64,000 nucleotides of DNA from Candidatus Omnitrophota bacterium (GCA_026416665.1 JAOAET010000051.1:11800-75799); one strand, 5' to 3'. Shown: positions 1 to 10,158, counted from the first letter of the stretch. Notes: a model not told the origin generated them from the sequence alone. Translations and numbers: made by a program.

Positions 1-238
1 TAATCAAAAGCACCAAGACTAAAGGGTTGAGAAATTTGGAAAGTATCTGGATCAGGATAGTACGTTTCTTCTTTTTGGCTGGCTCGTTATAACCGTATTG
101 CTGAAGACGACTCTGAGCCTCTTGTTCGGTGAGGCCTTTGAAAGATGTGTTTAGTTTGGAAAAAAGAACTTCTTGTGGACAACTGATATAGTCAAAATCC
201 CAATTTTGTAATTTTTTGATTCCGTTCTTATTTCTCAT
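1..238 (-). CDS. P-type ATPase, N-terminal fragment (MgtA-like Mg2+ transporter). The 3' end runs off the left window edge.
   Basis: Minus-strand ATG at 238..236 gives MRNKNGIKKLQNWDFDYISCPQEVLFSKLNTSFKGLTEQEAQSRLQQYGYNEPAKKKKRTILIQILSKFLNPLVLVLLI with no stop before position 1. The 'LTEQEAQSRLQQYGYNE' segment matches the conserved N-terminal region of MgtA/cation P-type ATPases. Not in the ORF track because it is truncated by the window edge. Confidence 0.45.
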   Translation of the reverse strand, partial: MRNKNGIKKLQNWDFDYISCPQEVLFSKLNTSFKGLTEQEAQSRLQQYGYNEPAKKKKRTILIQILSKFLNPLVLVLLI

Positions 239-356: not shown

Positions 357-384
357 ATTGTAAAGCAAAGAATATCTTTGTCAA
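357..384 (-). promoter_or_regulatory. Candidate sigma70 promoter for the mgtA-like gene: TTGACA, 16-nt spacer, TACAAT on the minus strand
   Basis: The reverse complement of 379..384 is TTGACA and of 357..362 is TACAAT. This would give a leader of about 120 nt before the ATG at 238. Confidence 0.3.
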
Positions 385-470: not shown

Positions 471-3092
471 TTATAAACTTGCGTTACCTGGAATAAGTTT
501 TAAAACCTCATCCCTCAGCTTCTTGGCGATTGTTTCGTAGTCCCCATTTAACTGTTGAGGATAAATTGGATGGCCAAAGATAACCTTTATTGGATGTGGC
601 CGAGGCAATTTCGCACTTCTTGGCCAAGAATAATGTGAACCTTGAATATATACAGGAACTACTGGGATACCTAACTCTTTTATTAAGATACCCACTCCTT
701 TTTTGAACTCTTTTACCTGTTTATCTATAGAACGCCTGCCCTCAGGAAATATACAAACAGTTTTCTTATGCGATAATACGAAAGAAACTGCCTGCATACC
801 TAAGGTTAAGTGGGTCTCAGTATCAATAGAAATTAAACGACATATCTTGATTGCCCAACTCAGTAAAGGATGTTCAAAAATACGTTGATATCCTACAAAG
901 TAAGTATTAATAGAAATCTTAAAAGGTAAACTTAAGAAAATAAATAACCCGTCTAGGTAACTGGCATGGTTTGGACAGATAAGATACGGTCCTTGTTTGG
1001 GCAGATTTTGACTACCTTGGCTTCTTAATAACCACAAGATTCTAAAAAGTAATAAAAAAATGTTTTTGATTACAAAAGTAATTACGGTCTCATAAAACCC
1101 AAAATCAATTTTTATCTTTTTAATTACCTCTTCTGGAGGCAATTCAGCTAAAATTTCCTTCCAATTTTTTTCTTTGGTTTTTGTATGTCTTGGATTTTTG
1201 TTTTGAATTAATTGCTCTAAATTTATAATGAGGTCTTTAACAGTAGCTACTTTATAGAGTAACTCATCAGGAATTTTTATCTTTAAAAGTGCTTCTAAAC
1301 CCAAACCAAGTTCTACTCTTGTTAGAGAGTCAATGCCAAGGTCAATTTCAAGGTGACTATTTAAATCCACAGGTTTTTTTATTTCCTCTGAAATATAACG
1401 AATTATTTTTTTAGCGATTTCTTTATTTAAAATCGCCAGTTCCTCTTCTGTATAAGATGCCTTTTCTTCTTTAACAGGCAAATTCTTTGACAAATATTTT
1501 TCTATTAACTGATAACGTTTAATCTTTCCCAAAGCAGTCCTAGGCAACTTTTCTTTGGTAAGGACAAACCCCATGATATGTTGATAAGAAGGAAGCTTCT
1601 TACTTAATGCCTCTAAATCCCAGCGTATTTTCTCACGGATATTTAATTCTCTTTTTTGCTTAAAATATTCTAAGTCTGGCACTATAACAGCAAAAAGCAA
1701 AACGCTAGGATAACCAAAGGTCTTTTCTGTCTTAGGGATAATAGCTATCTCTTTTATCCAAGGACTGGTTTGGTAATACTCTTCCAATTCCTCGGGATAG
1801 ATGTTCTTACCCGACGACAAAACAATAACTTCTTTTTCTCTACCTACAAGGAAAAGATATCCTTCCTTATCAATGTAACCTAAATCACCAGAATAAAACC
1901 AACCTTCTCTGATTGTGTCTGCGGTTAACTTTTCCTGTTTAAAATATCCTGCCATTACATTAGGGCCTTTAATCAATACCTGACCTATTGCCTTTTTATC
2001 AGGATTGGCTATCTTAATTTCTACATCAGGCAATGGCTTTCCTACAGAACCAAATTTTATTCTATTTGGTGGATTAATTGTCACTACTGGCGAGGTCTCA
2101 GTCAATCCGTAACCTTCAATTATTTTTAACCCTAAGGTTGTTAAACCTTTTCCGATATCCGGTTCCAAACGCGCCCCACCGCTTACTAATAACCGTAAAC
2201 TGCCGAATTTACTACGCAATCTTATCCTGACAAAAGGCAAAATCAAAGGTCTTAAGACAAAAGGAATATTTTGTATCTTCTCCATTATTGCCTTATGAAG
2301 AAGAGAAAAAATCTGCGGCACCCCTACCAAAATTGTGATCGAGGCCTCACTTATTATCTGAAAAATTTCTTGAGATTTAATATTTAAGGCATAGGTCACT
2401 TTAGCGCCTAAGAAAAGCGGAACAATCAAAGTTACCATAAAGGCATACGCATGATACAAAGGTAAAACAGAAAGAAAATTATCTGAAGGATAACAAAGAT
2501 TTAGTTTTTTAATACTAATAAAATTTGAGCAGATATTCTTGTGTGTAAGCATTACTGCCTTGGGTTTACCCGTTGTTCCTGAGGTATAAATAAGCGAAGC
2601 GATATCCTCAGGTTTGACTTCAGGCCAGTTAATATGTTCGTAAGAAACATTCTTTATTTTTTCCTTTACTTCCTCTGCATCCAAAACGATAGCTTCTGTT
2701 TTAGTTCCTACTATGGCCTGCTTTATTTTTTTACTAAAGAGGTCATTGCTGGTAAAAACAATCTTCGCACTACAATCCAGTATAATATTTCTTATCTCAT
2801 CTGGACTTAATTGGGGGTCTAAAGGCAAACAGGATAAACCTGCTTTCATTATCCCAAAATACACTGTAGCCCACTCAGGACAGTTCTCTAAAATTAAACA
2901 GGCAAAATCCCCTTTTTTCAGGCCTTTTTCTCTGATCAAGAATCCAGCTAATTTTAAGGACAGGTCTTCTAATTGTTTGTAAGTCCATTTTTCCCAAACT
3001 GAGCCTTTTTTTATTTGAAAACACACCTGCTGAGGAAAATTTCGGACTGTCTTGCTAAAAAATTCAGTGATAACTAAATTCTCTTCATTCAT
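471..3092 (-). CDS. Tri-domain fusion: acyl-AMP/acyl-CoA ligase (AMP-binding), acyl-carrier-protein domain, transmembrane segment and PlsC-type lysophospholipid acyltransferase
   Basis: N-terminal AMP-binding motif 'LIYTSGTTGKPKAV', then 'YSGDLGY' and 'GKI' motifs. A phosphopantetheine attachment site 'LEIDLGIDSLTRVEL' follows. A hydrophobic helix comes next, then the PlsC catalytic motifs 'PNHASYLD' (HX4D) and 'FPEGRRS'. The ORF track starts at 3134, but the second Met (MNEENL...) at 3092 forms an ATGA overlap with the upstream stop, so that is the likely true start. Confidence 0.8.
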   Translation of the reverse strand: MNEENLVITEFFSKTVRNFPQQVCFQIKKGSVWEKWTYKQLEDLSLKLAGFLIREKGLKKGDFACLILENCPEWATVYFGIMKAGLSCLPLDPQLSPDEIRNIILDCSAKIVFTSNDLFSKKIKQAIVGTKTEAIVLDAEEVKEKIKNVSYEHINWPEVKPEDIASLIYTSGTTGKPKAVMLTHKNICSNFISIKKLNLCYPSDNFLSVLPLYHAYAFMVTLIVPLFLGAKVTYALNIKSQEIFQIISEASITILVGVPQIFSLLHKAIMEKIQNIPFVLRPLILPFVRIRLRSKFGSLRLLVSGGARLEPDIGKGLTTLGLKIIEGYGLTETSPVVTINPPNRIKFGSVGKPLPDVEIKIANPDKKAIGQVLIKGPNVMAGYFKQEKLTADTIREGWFYSGDLGYIDKEGYLFLVGREKEVIVLSSGKNIYPEELEEYYQTSPWIKEIAIIPKTEKTFGYPSVLLFAVIVPDLEYFKQKRELNIREKIRWDLEALSKKLPSYQHIMGFVLTKEKLPRTALGKIKRYQLIEKYLSKNLPVKEEKASYTEEELAILNKEIAKKIIRYISEEIKKPVDLNSHLEIDLGIDSLTRVELGLGLEALLKIKIPDELLYKVATVKDLIINLEQLIQNKNPRHTKTKEKNWKEILAELPPEEVIKKIKIDFGFYETVITFVIKNIFLLLFRILWLLRSQGSQNLPKQGPYLICPNHASYLDGLFIFLSLPFKISINTYFVGYQRIFEHPLLSWAIKICRLISIDTETHLTLGMQAVSFVLSHKKTVCIFPEGRRSIDKQVKEFKKGVGILIKELGIPVVPVYIQGSHYSWPRSAKLPRPHPIKVIFGHPIYPQQLNGDYETIAKKLRDEVLKLIPGNASL

Positions 3093-3895
3093 TTTAGATG
3101 GCGTTTTAGAAAGTCTGAGATTTTCAGCATACACTCTTGATTGTAAATGTAGAAGGCATCATTATGTCCACCTTGCATAACATACAACTCTTTTGGTTCT
3201 TTAGCTGCTGTAAAGAGCATCTGGGCATGTTTAAATGGCACAATCTCATCATTTTTACTGTGAATAAAAAGTTTAGGCATGGTGATTGTGCCTACTTTTT
3301 TTAGCGAGTCGTATTTTTGCGTTACAAAAAGCCACAGAGGAATAAATTTATAGATATCTTTGGCTAAGTTGACAATAGAGGAAAAACCACTTTCAGAAAT
3401 AAGTGCTCCTGCTTTTACCTTGCTTGCCAAATCAATAGCTACTGCTGCACCTAAGGATTTTCCGTAAAGCACGATTTTTTCAGGCGGTATTCTTTTTGTC
3501 TTGACCAGATATTCATAGGCAGCTATTGCATCTAAATATGTTCCTAATTCAGATGGGCTACCTTGACTTCTTCCAAACCCGCGGTAGTCAAAGATAAAAA
3601 AACTAAAGTTTCTTTCATTAAATAATTTAGCTACTTCTATACGGTGGCTGATATTGCCAGCATTTCCGTGAAAATAAAGAACCACTATATCCTGATTTTG
3701 TGCAGGAATAAACCAACCGTTTAGGATAAGACCGTCTTGTGTTTTAAAAAATATATCTTCATAATTTAAGCCTCTACCTAATGGTGTAAATTCTATAGTT
3801 TTTTCAGGATAAAAGATTGATTTATATTCAAATATTCTCATATATATAAGAAAAAGTGATACTAAAATAATTAAAAGAATAACTTTTCTTAACAT
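3089..3895 (-). CDS. Membrane-anchored alpha/beta-fold hydrolase (BEM46/ABHD-like)
   Basis: N-terminal TM helix, 'HGNAGN' oxyanion-region motif, GxSxG nucleophile elbow 'GKSLGAA' and a C-terminal 'GGHND' His motif. Its TGA stop overlaps the ATG of the downstream fusion gene (ATGA). Confidence 0.75.
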   Translation of the reverse strand: MLRKVILLIILVSLFLIYMRIFEYKSIFYPEKTIEFTPLGRGLNYEDIFFKTQDGLILNGWFIPAQNQDIVVLYFHGNAGNISHRIEVAKLFNERNFSFFIFDYRGFGRSQGSPSELGTYLDAIAAYEYLVKTKRIPPEKIVLYGKSLGAAVAIDLASKVKAGALISESGFSSIVNLAKDIYKFIPLWLFVTQKYDSLKKVGTITMPKLFIHSKNDEIVPFKHAQMLFTAAKEPKELYVMQGGHNDAFYIYNQECMLKISDFLKRHLK

Positions 3896-4243
3896 TCTCT
3901 GCTGTGCTTATCTGGGGCAAAGTAAAAACAAAAATACTACTTTAATCCTCCAGCATCACGCCTGCCCGTAAATTCCTCTAATCAGTATTTATTCTCTCAG
4001 GAACTTCCCAGAAGAATGGTAATAATCTTTACCGTGTGCACAAAGATAAAACCTGAAACTTCACCAATACAGTCAACAATATATCCTACCTAAAATGACA
4101 AAAATTCGAAAGAAACAAACCGATTGTCTAAGTTTCATTTAATCTAAAAACGCACCTTATATAACCAGATATATAAAAAATAAATACCTTTACTAAACAT
4201 AAATCCCTAAATAACGTAAGTAAATTCAGAACCCCTTTTCTCT

Positions 4244-5845
4244 CTATTCATTAAAAAGGATTTTCATAACTGTAGATAAATCCGTTACCAGTTTTTGTAT
4301 AGATGTATAATCTAACTTTTCATAGGTGTCTTCTGGTGTATGGTAATAAGGATTACGACAAAAGGCTGTATCGGTTAACATTATGGCTTGGTAGCCAAAT
4401 CTCCAAAAGGACCAATGGTCAGAGAAGCTTATTTCTGGTATTAAAAAAATTGGGGCAACTAAAAACTCTATCGGCAAACTTGACTGTTTCTTAAATTCCC
4501 TGACTATCTTCTTCAAAAAACCTGAAGAACGAAGATTACTTATTGACGCGATAAAATTTCCCTTATCAGGATAGTAATATCTGAAGAGCCTTGTAGGATA
4601 GTTCTGTGAATTTCTTTTATTTGAATAATAACCTATAGACTCTAAACATATAACCCCTACAATATTATCCCCTCTTTTTTTTGCTTCTTGTGCGTATTGG
4701 AAACTGCCCATATCCTTAGTCATAAAAAAAGGTGGCTCTTCATTGGTAAAAGCAATAAATTTTATAGTTTGTTTGATTTCTTCTGGTGATAAAATCCTGG
4801 CTATTTCAAGAAGCCCAGCTACTCCAGAGGCATTATCATCTGCTCCGACAGAACCGATTACTGAATCATAATGAGCACACACAATGAGAATTTTCTCAGG
4901 GTGCACTTTACCTATTTTAGTAGCAATAATATTTCTATAAATTTTTCCTTCCAGGGAATAAACCTGCTCTTGTGGTTGGTAGCCATAATTCTTAAATTCT
5001 TGTTTTATATAATCAGCTGCTTGCTCTAAGTTTTGGTGGTGGCTAAAATTTCTCTCGCCTATATCTATTGATAGAAATTTAACATGTTTTTTTAGATTAT
5101 CATGTATTATTTGCTCTTGATACGTGTCTTTAGTCTGGTCTGTCTTAGCCCTTATCATCGGAACAAATCTCACGGGAATAATATTACTAATCACAATCTT
5201 GCCATTTTCCTTTTTGACTAATTTTAATTCTTGATAGTCAGCTCCTACGGGAATAACTAATCTTCCACCTTCAGCCAGTTGCTCTATCAAGGGCTTCGGG
5301 ATATCTTCTGCAGCGCAGGTAACTATAATCGCATCAAAAGGAGCCTGCTCGGGCCATCCCAGAAAACCATCTGCACATTTAACGTGGATATTTTTGTAAC
5401 CTAAATCTGTAAGTAATCTCTCTGCACGCTCTGCCAAAGGTTTTAATATCTCTATGGTATAAACCTGGTGGCTTAACTCTGCTAAAATCGCTGCTTGGTA
5501 TCCAGACCCAGTGCCTATCTCAAGTACCTTCTGGTTACCTTTCAACTCAAGAAGCTCGGTCATCAATGCTACAATATAGGGTTGGGAGATAGTCTGACCT
5601 TCACCAATCGGCAGTGGTGTGTCATCGTAAGCAAAAGGTCTAAATAACTCAGGGACAAATAAATGTCTTTTTACTTTACGCATTGCCTCTAAAACAGGCG
5701 TATCTTTTATGCCCCGCGCTTGTATCTGTTCTATTACCATCTTCTCTCTTTGCCGGTCAAAGTCCTGACACCAGACATTTCTGTTTAAAGTTAGAGAAAA
5801 CATACTGATAAACACCAATAGTTCTGCTTTTTGTTTAAGCTGCAT
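4244..5845 (-). CDS. Fusion of protein-L-isoaspartate O-methyltransferase (PIMT/Pcm) and M28 family Zn-aminopeptidase, with an N-terminal signal or anchor sequence
   Basis: Hydrophobic N-terminus '[12 protein letters not shown]'. PIMT motifs '[17 protein letters not shown]' and '[18 protein letters not shown]'. C-terminal M28 metal ligands 'CAHYDSV', '[12 protein letters not shown]', 'FTNEE' and 'YYHTPEDT'. Confidence 0.8.
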
Positions 5846-5902
5846 CTTGTGGTCAAATAATATTCTAAGTCCAAAACTGTATTTCAGAAATTTTATTTTG
5901 TT

Positions 5903-6604
5903 TTATTTTCTTTTACCTACTGGCATTATATATAGCGGTTCTTCTTTTATATTTAAGACCTTTTTTACTGCCTCATCTACAAATGCACCAACAGCTACAG
6001 TGGCAAGACCTAAAGATTCTGCCTGAAGATAGATATTTTGTCCAACATGTCCTGCCTCAATATGAACATATCTTTCTCCTCGTTCTCCGTACTTTTGCTT
6101 TGTTCTTTCATACTGGGCACAAATAACCAAGCTTACGGGCGCATTTTTTACGGCAGTTTGAAAAAGAGAGCTAGCAGATAAAGCAAGTCGCTTATCACCA
6201 TCAACGATTTTAATAAGCGAATGTCTTTTGGGATTATATTGATAAACCCCTGTTGTTAATTTTTCTACATTACCAACCACTAAATAAATCTCTAAAGGAT
6301 AAAGAGCACCTGCAGAAGGAACAGCCCTACCACCCCATTTAGTAGTAATTCCTTGTGCTGACCAGAGAAGTTGTGCAACCTCCTCTAAACTTAAGGGGGC
6401 ATCTTTATATTCCCTTACCGACCTTCTTTTAAAAATAGCCTGCTCTACTGAAAGTTTACCTGTTGTCTGAATTGCTGGAAGTTTTATCTCTTCTTTACTT
6501 TCACTTTCTGCTAAAATTATTCCTTTATTTTTTAGAAAATAACCAACAGAAAGTAATTCTGCAAACATAATTACGCTTGCAATAACTAAAAAATATTTCT
6601 TCAT
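5903..6604 (-). CDS. SagB-type dehydrogenase / nitroreductase-family protein with an N-terminal signal or anchor
   Basis: 'RRSVREY', 'AVPSAGALYPLEIY', 'YERTKQKYGERGERYVHIEAGHVGQNIYLQAESLGLATVAVGAF' and a terminal 'PVG' are the signature blocks of the SagB-type dehydrogenase domain of the nitroreductase superfamily. Hydrophobic N-terminus. Confidence 0.75.
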   Translation of the reverse strand: MKKYFLVIASVIMFAELLSVGYFLKNKGIILAESESKEEIKLPAIQTTGKLSVEQAIFKRRSVREYKDAPLSLEEVAQLLWSAQGITTKWGGRAVPSAGALYPLEIYLVVGNVEKLTTGVYQYNPKRHSLIKIVDGDKRLALSASSLFQTAVKNAPVSLVICAQYERTKQKYGERGERYVHIEAGHVGQNIYLQAESLGLATVAVGAFVDEAVKKVLNIKEEPLYIMPVGKRK

Positions 6605-6620
6605 TCTTCTTCCTCCATTA

Positions 6621-7562
6621 TCACCATCCTTGAATATCCAAATTAGTAAGACCCATTTGTTTTGCCCATCTTATAACTTCTTGATACTCCTGTTTTGTAA
6701 TTCTGCGGGCAATCTCAGGATAAAGATAAGCTTGGTGGCAAGGTGTATACTGGGACATAATGTTAAGGTAGGTATCCTTAGGTAAATTATTTGCTATCCA
6801 TTCAATAATTTCCTTTGTCCCTGCTACCCTATTAGGCATAACCAGGTGCCGTATCATCAGTCCACGGTAAATTAAGTTATCTTCCGTAAGTTTTGCTACG
6901 CCCACTTGGCGATGCATCTTAAGAATTGCTTCTCTTGTGACTTCAGCATAATCTTTTACTTGAGGTAAATGCCTCTGGGAAAACTCGTTATCCCAATATT
7001 TAAAATCTGGAAGATAAATATCTACTACCCCGTCCAAGTAATTTAGTATCTCTCCACGCTCCCAACCGCAGCTGTTATAAACAATGGGTAATCGTAAACC
7101 TTTACCCACCGCAATATCTAAAGCAAAAAGAATATGCGCTAAATAATGTGTAGGCGTAACCAGGTTAATATTATGACATCCTATCTTTTGTAATCTTAAC
7201 ATCATCTCTGCTAATTCTTCTATACTTATTGCCTCTGCTTCTTCTCCCTGACTAATCTGCCAGTTTATACAGAAAACGCACCTTAAAGCACAATGTGCAA
7301 AGAATATAGTCCCTGAACCACCCGTACCAACAAGAGGTCTTTCCTCACCAAAATGCGGATGGAATGAAGAGACCATCAACTGAGAATTTGCCTGACAAAA
7401 CCCTTTCTTTCCAGCAAGTCGGTCTACTTTACACTGTCGCGGACAGAGCCTGCAACTTTTCATTATATCCCAGAGTCTTTGGGCACGTTTTGCAAGTTCT
7501 CCAGTTCTGTGTAGTTTTAAATAACCTGGCTCAAAATTTAACTTAGCAATGTCTTTGTCCAT
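6621..7562 (-). CDS. Radical SAM enzyme, PflX-like (pyruvate formate-lyase activase-related) with an extra N-terminal Cys motif
   Basis: N-terminal 'CRLCPRQC', then 'GFCQ' and the canonical CX3CX2C cluster 'CALRCVFC', plus a glycine-rich SAM motif 'GTGGSGTIFF'. The family assignment (COG1313-like) is from memory and not searched. Confidence 0.7.
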   Translation of the reverse strand: MDKDIAKLNFEPGYLKLHRTGELAKRAQRLWDIMKSCRLCPRQCKVDRLAGKKGFCQANSQLMVSSFHPHFGEERPLVGTGGSGTIFFAHCALRCVFCINWQISQGEEAEAISIEELAEMMLRLQKIGCHNINLVTPTHYLAHILFALDIAVGKGLRLPIVYNSCGWERGEILNYLDGVVDIYLPDFKYWDNEFSQRHLPQVKDYAEVTREAILKMHRQVGVAKLTEDNLIYRGLMIRHLVMPNRVAGTKEIIEWIANNLPKDTYLNIMSQYTPCHQAYLYPEIARRITKQEYQEVIRWAKQMGLTNLDIQGW

Positions 7563-8001
7563 AAAAAAGCTTTATCTTTTATCTTAAAAAGCACTCCTAT
7601 AGTAAAACATGCTTAATCTACCAAAAACATAAAAAAGTCAAACAATATTATTTTGGTTAATTTAGATAGGAAACCTCTAAAACATTTTTAAAACTATCGT
7701 TAAACTTCCTATTTAGACTTAGAATTTTTTCTAAAAATAGTTTTTACAAATTAAAAATTTTTTATTTGTAATTTCTTTCTTCTATCGGAGAGAAAACAGG
7801 ATTGCTTCCTACAAAAAAGACGTTGTCAGGGATGAGATAAAATTCAGTTTAAAAATATTTTACCAAAACAACATTTATAGCCAGAATAAGAAACAGAGTT
7901 CTTGCTTTAACGATACTGGCAATTATTTTCTATGCCAACAGGAGGCTTCTCCACCCTTCAAGCACTCTTTTTAGGAAAGTTAATTCTACTGTATTAGGTG
8001 A

Positions 8002-8169
8002 TTATAAATGATTTAGCACGAAATTACAGAAATAACTAACCAATAAATCAAAGATATCTTTATGATACCTGTGATTATATCTAAATTCAAGTTCTTTAAG
8101 ATAAAGAGGTAATCTTTCTTTAGATAACCCATGAAACTTTATAAGTTTTTCTAAAGTTGTGGTCTGCAT
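8002..8169 (-). pseudogene. Remnant of an IS1595/ISXO2-like transposase, C-terminal 55-aa fragment
   Basis: The minus-strand ORF reads MQTTTLEKLIKFHGLSKERLPLYLKELEFRYNHRYHKDIFDLLVSYFCNFVLNHL. The 'HL(P)LYLKEfEFRYNhR' block is the characteristic C-terminal motif of IS1595-family (ISXO2-like DDE) transposases. No upstream catalytic domain remains. It lies in an ORF-free AT-rich island next to tRNA-His. Confidence 0.45.
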
Positions 8170-8174
8170 AGCAT

Positions 8175-8202
8175 AAAAAACCTCCGCTTTTTTAAGCGAA
8201 GG
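8175..8202 (-). terminator. Rho-independent terminator candidate downstream of tRNA-His
   Basis: Inverted repeat cctccgc/gcgaagg (7 bp, one mismatch) with an 8-nt loop. On the minus strand it is followed by TTTTTT. Confidence 0.45.
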
Positions 8203-8384
8203 TTACTTATTTTTATGTGAAGTTTCCCACTTTGAATTCACCACTAAATAATTTATTTCTATTAACAGGCAAAATGGTATCATTAAAGCATATCTTTATC
8301 AATTTTTTCTTGTATAAATATTAATATGTTAAATACTAAACAACCACCTTTTTTAAATGAAAAGCTCTTTAATTTTCAAAGATT

Positions 8385-8462
8385 TGGGGTGGCTGAGGGG
8401 GCTCGAACCCCCAACCCTCAGAGCCACAGTCTGATGCTCTAGCCAGTTGAGCTACAGCCACC
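8385..8462 (-). tRNA. tRNA-His (anticodon GUG)
   Basis: The reverse complement is GGTGGCTGTAGCTCAACTGGCTAGAGCATCAGACTGTGGCTCTGAGGGTTGGGGGTTCGAGCCCCCTCAGCCACCCCA. It has the extra 5' G(-1) typical of tRNA-His, anticodon loop CTGTGGC and an encoded CCA. It is very close to E. coli tRNA-His. Confidence 0.9.
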
Positions 8463-8559
8463 ACAATTTTATCCTACAAATTGTTCAATAGAGATTACAA
8501 AAAAATTTATTTTATCTTATGAGTTAATATTTTTCAATAACAAAAAACCTTTATCTGTG

Positions 8560-10158
8560 CTAATTACTAGTATTACTTGAAGTTATTTCTTGCTTTTCTC
8601 CCTGCTTGATTGCTGGCGAAGTTTCTTTTTGTTCTCTACGAAAGCTTGCCTTTAAGGCACCAGTTAATTCTTGACCTATTCCTACTGTAGTATTAATTAG
8701 CGATTTTGTCAAGTCAGCGGCCGTAGAAAAAGTATCCTTTATTGCCGAAGCAGGCAAACGGATAACCTTGCCTACAGGACTCGGACGAGGTGCTGCTTGA
8801 CTTAAACGCTCTACTAAGGCATTACGAATAACCTGAATACCAAATTCTGGACTATCAAATTTTGTCCTGTAGGTAAAATCTAAAACTATTGCCTCCTGAT
8901 TCTGCTGTCTTAGCATTCCAATGACTTTTTCTGTAAGACGTTCAAGCCGGTCTTTTTGTTCATCCTTCTGCCTTGGTTTAAACTCAAGCTGGGTAAGTTC
9001 AAGTCTACAAAAAGCAGTAACTTCATTATTTACCCCAGTTATATTGCTGGTGAAGTTAAAACGTGCCTTTTGAATCCGTGCTTTCTCTATGTCAACCCAA
9101 GGGCTAAAATATGGCGAAAGTTTAATTGCGTCTAGATTTTTTATGCGAACATTAGCGTTTATGTTACGTCTATAGAAGTTAACCCAACCATCTATTACTA
9201 AAACACCTTTTTCATCTAACTGTGCTGAAGGAATATTTGCCCGGATTTTAAAAAAATTGACTGTATCAGCAGTAACTGGCCAACGAAAGTTTTCAATTAC
9301 AGCGTTTATTTCTTTCAGATTTAACTCAAGTGGCTGTTCACTTATCTTATGATCAACAAATCGTATCTGCCCTTCGGTTAAAATGATTTTCTTTATATAC
9401 AGAGAGTTTATAGGTATATTGCTTAGATTGCTAAGATTTAGACCTTGAATTCTTTTGCGAAACAAAGACAAAGGTACTTGTTCGCTTGAAACAGCCTGCG
9501 AACCCTGTGAGAAAAATTCAGATGAAGTTAAAGTTAGCTTTTGATTATTTTGGTTATCTTCCGGCAATAAAAAATTAGTTTTATTTTGAATTTGTATTTG
9601 AGCCTGCTGTTGTGTTTGACTTCCTGTTAAGTTCATTAGTTGATTTTGCTCTTGGATTTTTGGGGTTACTTGAGATTGCGTTTGTGATTCTCTATAAAAC
9701 TCCTCTCTAACTTTTAAATTTTTTTCTTTTGTGGAAACGGATTCACCAGAAGATACGTCTGTTGATGCAGGCGGTGACTTTACTTGTGTTTCAATATTCT
9801 GGTTTAAGGCGGAGTTTTCTAAATTATTTTGTTGTTTTTTCCGTTCAATTACAAAATCAAGCCCTTCTAAGTTAAGCTCAGATAAAACAATATTTTGTCT
9901 TAACAGACCAATAACGCCAAGACCTGCAGAAAGCTTCTTACAGTAAAACAAGTCATTTACTTTAAGGTCCAAAACCACCAACTTTAAAGGCAATTCCATA
10001 GTGATTGAACCAATCTGAACTCGCCGCCCAAAAAGCCTTTCTAAACGACTGGTGAAAATCTGTGGACCTTTTTTACTTACAAGATAATCTAAAGAAAAAA
10101 AAGCCAATAGTGCTATCACTAAAATGCCAACGGTAAACCAAATTACTACTCTGGTCAT
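8560..10158 (-). CDS. Membrane-anchored AsmA-like / DUF748-like protein with a Gln/Asn-rich low-complexity linker
   Basis: N-terminal TM helix, AsmA-like N- and C-terminal blocks and a central Q/N/S-rich region (~residues 110-230). Confidence 0.5.
   Translation of the reverse strand: MTRVVIWFTVGILVIALLAFFSLDYLVSKKGPQIFTSRLERLFGRRVQIGSITMELPLKLVVLDLKVNDLFYCKKLSAGLGVIGLLRQNIVLSELNLEGLDFVIERKKQQNNLENSALNQNIETQVKSPPASTDVSSGESVSTKEKNLKVREEFYRESQTQSQVTPKIQEQNQLMNLTGSQTQQQAQIQIQNKTNFLLPEDNQNNQKLTLTSSEFFSQGSQAVSSEQVPLSLFRKRIQGLNLSNLSNIPINSLYIKKIILTEGQIRFVDHKISEQPLELNLKEINAVIENFRWPVTADTVNFFKIRANIPSAQLDEKGVLVIDGWVNFYRRNINANVRIKNLDAIKLSPYFSPWVDIEKARIQKARFNFTSNITGVNNEVTAFCRLELTQLEFKPRQKDEQKDRLERLTEKVIGMLRQQNQEAIVLDFTYRTKFDSPEFGIQVIRNALVERLSQAAPRPSPVGKVIRLPASAIKDTFSTAADLTKSLINTTVGIGQELTGALKASFRREQKETSPAIKQGEKQEITSSNTSN

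Follow-up and report, generated by a model that had tools for sequence, protein, structure and literature searches.

A ligase–acyl carrier–acyltransferase fusion coupled to a membrane-anchored hydrolase in an Omnitrophota genome: a candidate lysolipid re-acylation enzyme beside the remnant of its MFS partner gene

Introduction

What does a bacterium do with one protein that combines the domains for activating an acyl chain, carrying it and transferring it, and with a hydrolase encoded in the same operon? This question is raised by a locus in a 64,000-nt stretch of DNA from Candidatus Omnitrophota bacterium (GCA_026416665.1 JAOAET010000051.1:11800-75799), here called the window, whose positions serve as coordinates throughout. 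Its ligase–acyl carrier protein (ACP)–acyltransferase fusion gene overlaps the gene for an alpha/beta hydrolase, and a first-pass annotation made from the sequence alone had read the pair as a self-contained module for remodelling envelope lipids. On balance, we lean towards the view that the fusion is a membrane-associated lysolipid re-acylation enzyme resembling Escherichia coli Aas, with its ACP in cis and with operon roles for the hydrolase and for a transporter of the major facilitator superfamily (MFS). The transporter is the usual partner of the fusion in related genomes, and only a fragment of its gene is left in the window.

Results

The fusion gene and its coupling to the hydrolase gene

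The locus consists of two overlapping genes on the minus strand:

471..3092, minus strand: ligase–ACP–acyltransferase fusion gene, a single uninterrupted open reading frame (ORF) of 873 aa from ATG
3089..3092, minus strand: ATGA start/stop overlap of the hydrolase and fusion genes, read directly as ...CTA AAA TGA ATG AAG...
3089..3895, minus strand: alpha/beta serine hydrolase gene, 268 aa with an N-terminal membrane helix (Hydrolase_4, 2.3e-17; Abhydrolase_1, 2.1e-12)

The ATG of the fusion (3092..3090) overlaps the TGA stop (3091..3089) of the 268-aa ORF upstream, so the translational coupling proposed in the first-pass annotation is real. Relatives also show ATGA-type coupling at the fusion start, whichever gene lies upstream. 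An alternative GTG start at 3134 would lengthen the ORF to 471..3134 (887 aa); homologues have N-termini (consensus MxxExLVIHKxFS) that point to the ATG, and we therefore prefer the length of 873 aa. The fusion protein has the same sequence (100% identity) as a deposited ‘AMP-binding protein’ from a Candidatus Omnitrophica metagenome-assembled genome, encoded on a 239-kb contig, and we therefore see no sign of an assembly frameshift. Nothing points to the frameshift or stop between domains that the annotation had named as grounds for abandoning its proposal.

Domains and conserved residues of the fusion protein

Along the 873-aa chain we find the following, in order:

1941..3056, minus strand: N-terminal domain of the adenylation (ANL) module, residues 13-384 (AMP-binding PF00501, 1e-84)
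1491..1832, minus strand: adenylation C-terminal subdomain, residues 421-534, with Lys523 (AMP-binding_C_3 PF23562, 6.6e-6)
1227..1409, minus strand: in-cis acyl carrier domain, residues 562-622 (PP-binding PF00550, 32.9 bits against a gathering score of 20.8)
1032..1097, minus strand: hydrophobic helix, residues 666-687 (Kyte-Doolittle maximum 2.12 over 19 residues)
645..1025, minus strand: PlsC/LPLAT-type acyltransferase domain, residues 690-816 (Acyltransferase PF01553, 1.5e-24)

Pfam thus returns AMP-binding, PP-binding and Acyltransferase in the order that the first-pass annotation had expected. The motifs it had quoted (TSGTTGKPK, DLGIDSL, HX4D and FPEGRRS) are all present, and the catalytic residues are invariant in an alignment of 38 fusion homologues with 52-73% identity, to which all statements on invariance in the fusion refer.

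The adenylation domain contains TSGTTGKPK and EGYGLTET, and residues 170-174 (TSGTT), Glu332, Asp403, Arg418 and the A10 lysine, Lys523, are invariant. It has more than 200 relatives in the PDB and shows both the fold and the motifs of the ANL superfamily; its substrate would be a long-chain fatty acid. In the carrier domain, DLGIDSL does not vary and includes Ser589, the phosphopantetheine-attachment residue encoded at 1326..1328, and this part of the protein matches AcpP-type NCBIfam models. The AlphaFold2 model of the fusion (mean pLDDT 81) shows the carrier as a four-helix bundle in which helix 2 (589-603) begins at Ser589, as in PF00550 domains, and low-confidence linkers (537-546 and 633-641) flank it on either side. 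No phosphopantetheinyl transferase was found among the window ORFs scanned with Pfam, which were about a third of the total, and no search aimed at this enzyme was made. In the acyltransferase domain, HX4D corresponds to His709/Asp714 and block III to FPEGRRS (782-788); His709, Asp714, Phe782, Glu784, Gly785, Arg787 and Ser788 are invariant. The domain matches PlsC of T. maritima (5kym) with an E value of 2e-13, and its dyad, block and fold are those of the PlsC/LPLAT family.

The segment that the annotation had called a transmembrane helix is indeed a hydrophobic helix, residues 666-687, and it exceeds the transmembrane hydrophobicity threshold, yet it holds Lys, Asn and Arg. In the AlphaFold2 model it forms one long helix just ahead of the acyltransferase core. 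It directly precedes the segment that aligns to 5kym PlsC from chain residue 59 on, and it aligns to the extreme N-terminus of E. coli Aas. Its position is therefore that of the N-terminal anchoring helix of PlsC, for which spanning is not required. A true span would place the acyltransferase and its own carrier domain on opposite sides of the membrane. It seems more likely that the helix anchors a PlsC-type enzyme to the membrane than that it crosses it.

Size and spread of the fusion family

By word-indexed search we found more than 120 homologues of full length, with identities from 52% up to 73%. All those with a named source are from Omnitrophota, and they are annotated solely as ‘AMP-binding protein’ or ‘long-chain acyl-CoA synthetase’. 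When the ACP–acyltransferase part (329 aa) was searched against a library of representatives at 50% identity, 299 clusters matched at E <=1e-30. Most of these have 870-920 aa and align through their C-terminal part, as expected for tri-domain proteins of the same layout; one such cluster comes from Nitrospirota. A full-text literature search for a characterised AMP-binding/PP-binding/PlsC fusion found none of relevance. The architecture is not peculiar to this genome and not new: hundreds of proteins from Omnitrophota, and some from Nitrospirota, have it. The order of ligase, ACP and acyltransferase, which the first-pass annotation had singled out as noteworthy, is that of Myxococcus xanthus ElbD, and ElbD-like homologues without the fatty-acyl reductase (FAR) domain were noted in 2014 (PMC9131029). 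The protein is best described as a member of a large uncharacterised family, a permuted Aas with a built-in ACP or, equally, an ElbD without its reductase.

An MFS gene is the usual partner in relatives

Four arrangements occur in the neighbourhoods of related fusion genes (L numbers designate the individual neighbourhoods; percentages are identities to the window protein):

MFS – hydrolase – fusion, with overlapping genes: L083 (72% identity), L093, L094
MFS – 57-aa hydrolase stub – fusion: L085
MFS – fusion: L086, L088, L089, L090, L091, L092 and the more distant L005
Neither MFS nor hydrolase partner: L084

An MFS partner is present in 10 of the 11 Omnitrophota-type neighbourhoods, L005 among them, as the gene immediately upstream, and it mostly overlaps or abuts the fusion or the hydrolase gene. 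Six hydrolase matches (P0004, P0016, P0019, P0027, P0029 and P0057) lie on contigs equal in size to those of fusion matches, which suggests that the pairing occurs in several sub-lineages. Although not decisive, a small neighbour-joining tree spreads the operons with a hydrolase over several clades and groups most of those with the MFS gene alone in a single clade, a distribution more easily explained by later losses from an ancestral operon of three genes. When hydrolase and fusion were compared in small neighbour-joining trees, the signal was too weak to demonstrate co-inheritance.

The stub in L085 (5831-6004) is an in-frame internal-deletion remnant that keeps the membrane helix of the hydrolase and its last 30 residues and still overlaps the fusion start. 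In five of the MFS-only relatives (L086, L088, L089, L090 and L091), the fusion gene overlaps at its 3' end with a gene for BacA/UppP, an undecaprenyl-diphosphate phosphatase, after which come PfkB and YqeY; the window does not share this arrangement.

The partner proteins match Pfam MFS_1 and ATG22. We considered whether they could be LplT, the transporter that accompanies Aas, and rejected this: they had no NCBIfam LplT match, and BLASTP against E. coli LplT gave an E value of 0.22. The pairing of MFS and fusion would then be convergent with LplT-Aas and not orthologous to it.

Tri-domain genes from more distant lineages have other neighbours. In L006 (37% identity), a patatin-like RssA-type phospholipase gene directly follows the tri-domain gene (L006 3923-4819). 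In L007 (36%), genes for a YbgC/FadM hotdog thioesterase and an MFS protein overlap the end of the tri-domain gene (L007 5013-6564); this MFS protein was likewise tested as LplT and rejected. In L019 (46%; 857-9718), the operon encodes a GtrA-like 887-aa membrane protein, a 485-aa ACP-acyltransferase protein without the adenylation N-domain, a fusion of a family 4 glycosyltransferase (GT4) with an alpha/beta hydrolase, and the tri-domain enzyme, a gene set suggestive of glycolipid acylation. Three unrelated acyl-hydrolase folds (alpha/beta hydrolase, patatin and hotdog thioesterase) thus stand beside tri-domain genes in separate lineages. This recurrence is the best support for the deacylation and re-acylation role that the first-pass annotation had proposed, which we find plausible. 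The thioesterase in L007 and the glycosyltransferase in L019 also keep alive two of the alternatives weighed below.

A decayed MFS gene in the window

No intact MFS gene was found in the 64-kb window by tblastn with the MFS proteins of relatives. The 348-nt spacer (3896..4243) between the hydrolase gene and the next gene, which encodes a protein-L-isoaspartate O-methyltransferase (PCMT)–M28 peptidase fusion, does hold a fragment of one:

4086..4193, minus strand: remnant of an ATG22-type MFS gene, about 110 nt (blastn against the MFS gene of L083)

The remnant shares 71% identity over 113 nt with the middle of the L083 gene and scores 47.3 bits, whereas 200 shuffles gave a mean of 20.6 and a maximum of 29.2. 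The alignment contains a 5-nt indel, and the translation, RCVFRLNET*TIGLF against TRVFGLNETQIIHLMLF, has an in-frame stop. Synteny with L083, where the order is nitroreductase, PCMT–M28, MFS, hydrolase and fusion, supports the reading of this fragment as a decayed MFS gene. Taken with the operons of relatives, it suggests that the pair in the window is a three-gene module minus its transporter. The description of the pair as self-contained does not hold, since the usual partner is an ATG22-type MFS protein that survives here only as a pseudogene remnant.

The alpha/beta hydrolase

The predicted catalytic triad of the hydrolase is Ser147 (3455..3457), Asp216 (3248..3250) and His244 (3164..3166). 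Across 39 hydrolase sequences, HGNAGN (76-81), Gly145-x-Ser147-x-Gly149, Asp216 and His244 are invariant. The AlphaFold2 model (pLDDT 93) has an N-terminal helix at residues 2-27, and its closest match in a Foldseek search is the Pyrococcus furiosus esterase Pf2001 (TM 0.75-0.80), with probability 1.0 to many esterases and lipases. Further fold matches are lipases, monoacylglycerol lipases, feruloyl esterases, GrgF and DcsB. By sequence, the top PDB match is to a Vibrio RTX toxin (6imp/6ii2, E 3e-13), in its alpha/beta-hydrolase domain, which we take to be a phospholipase A1.

A 56%-identical homologue in another Omnitrophota genome (L095 4513-6810) adjoins genes for a protein like LMF1 (lipase maturation factor) and for type IV pili.

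Surroundings of the locus

The neighbours in the window are PCMT–M28, nitroreductase and radical SAM protein genes upstream and a P-type ATPase gene downstream, and nothing nearby is lipid-related. The PCMT–M28 fusion (4244-5845, minus strand) has 533 aa and a hydrophobic N-terminus. It occupies the same position in L083, and PCMT alone is found near the module in L085 and L094. Positions 1-235 (minus strand) encode the N-terminus of the P-type cation ATPase, which runs off the window. Between the fusion stop and the ATPase start lies a strong promoter-like site (384..357, minus strand) with an 11/12 match to the sigma-70 pattern TTGACA-16-TACAAT, so the ATPase is probably a separate transcription unit. 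The 348-nt spacer upstream of the hydrolase gene contains no convincing sigma-70-like promoter.

Further along are genes for tRNAs, a TPR protein, Ham1, RNase PH, a GGDEF response regulator, a histidine kinase and fumarase; the tRNAs are the only Rfam matches in the vicinity. The interval from the radical SAM gene to a tRNA gene (8388-8461) comprises about 800 AT-rich nucleotides (7563-8387, GC about 0.30) and has no ORF of at least 80 aa and no Rfam match above gathering scores. A 532-aa ORF at 8560-10158 (minus strand) has an N-terminal membrane helix and a long middle rich in Gln, Ser and Asn, with no Pfam match at E <=0.001.

Discussion

Proposed mechanism

The domains and operon structures described above could be joined in the following scheme. 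The adenylation domain would convert a free long-chain fatty acid and ATP to acyl-AMP, from which the built-in carrier would take up the acyl group on its Ser589-linked phosphopantetheine thiol. The carrier could then swing on its flexible linkers to the PlsC-type acyltransferase, held by its helix at the cytoplasmic face of the membrane, which would place the acyl chain on the free hydroxyl of a lysolipid, most likely a lysophospholipid. Flux would then run from fatty acid to lipid. In operons that keep the MFS protein, this transporter may play the part that LplT plays for Aas, supplying or flipping the lipid substrate, and the hydrolase may generate the lyso form or strip a damaged or foreign acyl chain from a lipid. 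The ancestral unit would comprise the MFS protein, the membrane-anchored hydrolase and the fusion, of which this genome retains the last two. The first-pass annotation had also proposed that no free ACP or CoA intermediate is involved and had suggested a lysophospholipid as acceptor; both statements are best read as predictions.

Several observations weigh against this interpretation. The MFS gene is dead in the window, so the pair must work without an MFS protein or with a copy encoded elsewhere. Since the MFS partner of relatives is not LplT, the role of lysolipid or lipid flippase is proposed for it by analogy. The hydrolase is dispensable in many relatives, being absent from seven of the 11 neighbourhoods and reduced to the 57-aa stub in one more; the L095 homologue stands away from any fusion gene, and comparison of its fold leads to generic esterases and lipases, which give no substrate-specific signal for the hydrolase. 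Every NCBIfam score of the fusion lies far under the family cut-off, including those of the Aas equivalogs (178 vs 886 bits for PRK08043, 273 vs 1221 for PRK08633 and 205 vs 1349 for PRK06814). Finally, the acyltransferase activity of ElbD was undetected in vitro (PMC9131029), and the FAR-less members of that group are known from sequence alone.

Alternative explanations

The fusion could instead build phosphatidic acid from scavenged fatty acids, acting in the manner of PlsB/PlsC on glycerol-3-phosphate or 1-acyl-glycerol-3-phosphate, with the built-in ACP in place of AcpP or acyl-CoA. Such a pathway could suit small, possibly host-dependent Omnitrophota. It would fit the match of the acyltransferase to 5kym PlsC noted above and to the generic AGPAT model TIGR00530 (66 bits), as well as the description of the ElbD acyltransferase as AGPAT/GNPAT-like (PMC9131029). 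The 64-kb window contains no homologue of type II fatty acid synthesis (FASII) genes, acpP or plsX, a result of little weight for a piece of this size, from which the absence of FASII cannot be shown. Nevertheless, the best NCBIfam match of the acyltransferase domain alone is the acyltransferase segment of PRK08633, an acyl-[ACP]--phospholipid O-acyltransferase, which at 99 bits outscores the AGPAT model, and the second-best match of the adenylation domain is to the same Aas-type family. The recurrent MFS and lipase neighbours fit the recycling of preformed lipids better, and the Omnitrophota papers that we searched on this subject leave lipid metabolism aside and do not mention missing fatty-acid synthesis. 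We consider the synthesis of phosphatidic acid unlikely.

Another possibility concerns the hydrolase, which could act in trans as a thioesterase of the carrier domain, clearing stalled or wrong acyl groups from the Ser589-phosphopantetheine or releasing the product. Its relatives in the PDB include GrgF (6lzh, E 2.7e-11) and DcsB (7d78), which presumably act on carrier-bound acyl chains, and the hotdog thioesterase of L007 holds the adjacent position. In addition, Lys and Arg are richer after the membrane helix than before it in 30 of 39 hydrolase family members; this bias weakly favours a cytoplasmic catalytic domain, which could reach the ACP. Membership in the type II thioesterase family was tested and rejected, with no PF00975 match at E <=0.01, and the best sequence and fold matches are a toxin hydrolase domain and esterases or lipases. 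The membrane anchor suits a lipid substrate, homologues also occur unlinked to any carrier protein, and the patatin phospholipase partner in L006 points to lipid hydrolysis. A thioesterase role is compatible with our model for the fusion itself, and we regard it as rather improbable.

That the locus makes a specialised lipid, through an ElbD-like ether-lipid step or the acylation of a glycolipid, aminolipid or other envelope molecule, is quite implausible: full-length homology to ElbD-type proteins, the glycosyltransferase operon of L019 (the closest relative outside the Omnitrophota type), BacA/UppP directly downstream of the fusion in five relatives and weak matches to the OlsA and OlsF ornithine-lipid acyltransferase models speak for it, yet the genes beside the pair in the window include none like elbB or elbE, no glycosyltransferase and no BacA, and the fusion lacks a FAR/NAD_binding_4 domain and with it the means to produce fatty aldehyde or alcohol for ether bonds.

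Significance

We therefore return to lysolipid re-acylation by an Aas-like enzyme with an ACP in cis as the reading that we favour. The new findings are that an ATG22-type MFS protein recurs as partner, that the operon can comprise three genes, that the MFS gene has decayed in this genome and that unrelated acyl-hydrolases stand repeatedly beside the family. If re-acylation is indeed the function, the enzyme would have built in the acyl-ACP intermediate for which E. coli Aas relies on free ACP, and the LplT/Aas principle of pairing a transporter with a re-acylating enzyme would have evolved twice, the second time with an unrelated MFS family. There would also be a concrete function for a large protein family now labelled only ‘AMP-binding protein’ or ‘long-chain acyl-CoA synthetase’, for the ‘FAR-less ElbD-like’ proteins of 2014 and for a bacterial branch of ATG22-type transporters. 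The locus also gives a starting point for tests of how uncultured Omnitrophota keep up or obtain their membrane lipids, and the fusion could serve as a compact one-protein tool for incorporating free fatty acids into phospholipids.

It is tempting to speculate further that the MFS protein, the lipase and the ACP-bearing Aas-like enzyme together form a lipid salvage machine of Omnitrophota and some neighbouring phyla that evolved independently of LplT/Aas and works without soluble ACP or CoA. Foreign or damaged lipids would be taken up or flipped, stripped of one acyl chain and rebuilt with scavenged fatty acids, perhaps as a main membrane-lipid route in ultra-small, possibly host-dependent cells. 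This extension is possible, and we hold it as doubtful.

Comparison with known systems

One of the nearest known systems is Aas (2-acylglycerophosphoethanolamine acyltransferase/acyl-ACP synthetase). The synthetase part of the fusion shares 28% identity with it (E 2e-39) and the acyltransferase part 27% (E 6e-14), in swapped order. Pfam on the E. coli lplT-aas locus places Acyltransferase at 15-137 and AMP-binding at 233-568 of Aas and finds no PP-binding domain, which bears out what the first-pass annotation had stated on its domain order and lack of a carrier: Aas has the acyltransferase before the synthetase, whereas the window protein has the synthetase, the ACP and then the acyltransferase. 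Aas uses free holo-ACP (PMC11416262) and the window protein carries a PP-binding domain in cis; the same chemistry through an acyl-ACP intermediate is nonetheless probable for the fusion. Judged by the scores given above, the fusion resembles Aas on paper and yet is not a member of the Aas family. The products of lplT and aas form a complex that flips and re-acylates lysophospholipids (PMC11416262). As with these two genes, an MFS gene is coupled to the enzyme gene in relatives of the fusion; the differences are that this MFS protein is of the ATG22 type, that only its dead remnant is found in the window and that there is an extra gene for an alpha/beta hydrolase.

The ether-lipid enzyme ElbD of M. 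xanthus joins a FAR1-like reductase, an acyl-CoA synthetase (ACS), an ACP and an AGPAT-like acyltransferase in one polypeptide, and its ACS and ACP activities were confirmed in vitro; almost all of its homologues in other phyla lack the FAR domain (PMC9131029, a review on plasmalogen synthesis in myxobacteria). The window protein has ACS, ACP and acyltransferase in the same order on one chain and is homologous along the whole span. Two metagenomic proteins, L009 (1451 aa) and L010 (1509 aa), have the ElbD architecture of NAD_binding_4 and Sterile, AMP-binding, PP-binding and Acyltransferase; in tblastn they align with residues 10-853 and 10-840 of the window protein at 29-30% identity (E about 1e-121). 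An ElbE-like epimerase gene lies downstream of L010 and of L011. In contrast to L009 and L010, which have both reductase domains, the window protein lacks the N-terminal fatty-acyl reductase (NAD_binding_4/Sterile), and its locus has no elbB (HAD) or elbE (epimerase) neighbours; the partners are a serine hydrolase and a decayed MFS gene. By its domain content, the protein falls in the published ‘FAR-less ElbD-like’ group, and since both the reductase domain and the elb neighbours are missing, an ElbD-type ether-lipid role at this locus is unlikely.

The hydrolase shares its Ser-Asp-His triad, GxSxG and HG oxyanion motif with Pf2001, monoacylglycerol lipases and the Vibrio RTX hydrolase domain. 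It differs from them in that identity is only about 20-25% and that its N-terminal membrane helix lies outside those structures. Finally, PlsC (1-acyl-sn-glycerol-3-phosphate acyltransferase; Thermotoga maritima structure 5KYM) has the same HX4D and FPEGxRS motifs as the fusion, the same fold family and a hydrophobic N-terminal helix before the catalytic core. PlsC is a stand-alone enzyme of about 250 aa that draws on free acyl-ACP or acyl-CoA as donor, whereas the fusion carries a donor-making enzyme and a carrier upstream of its acyltransferase on the same chain.

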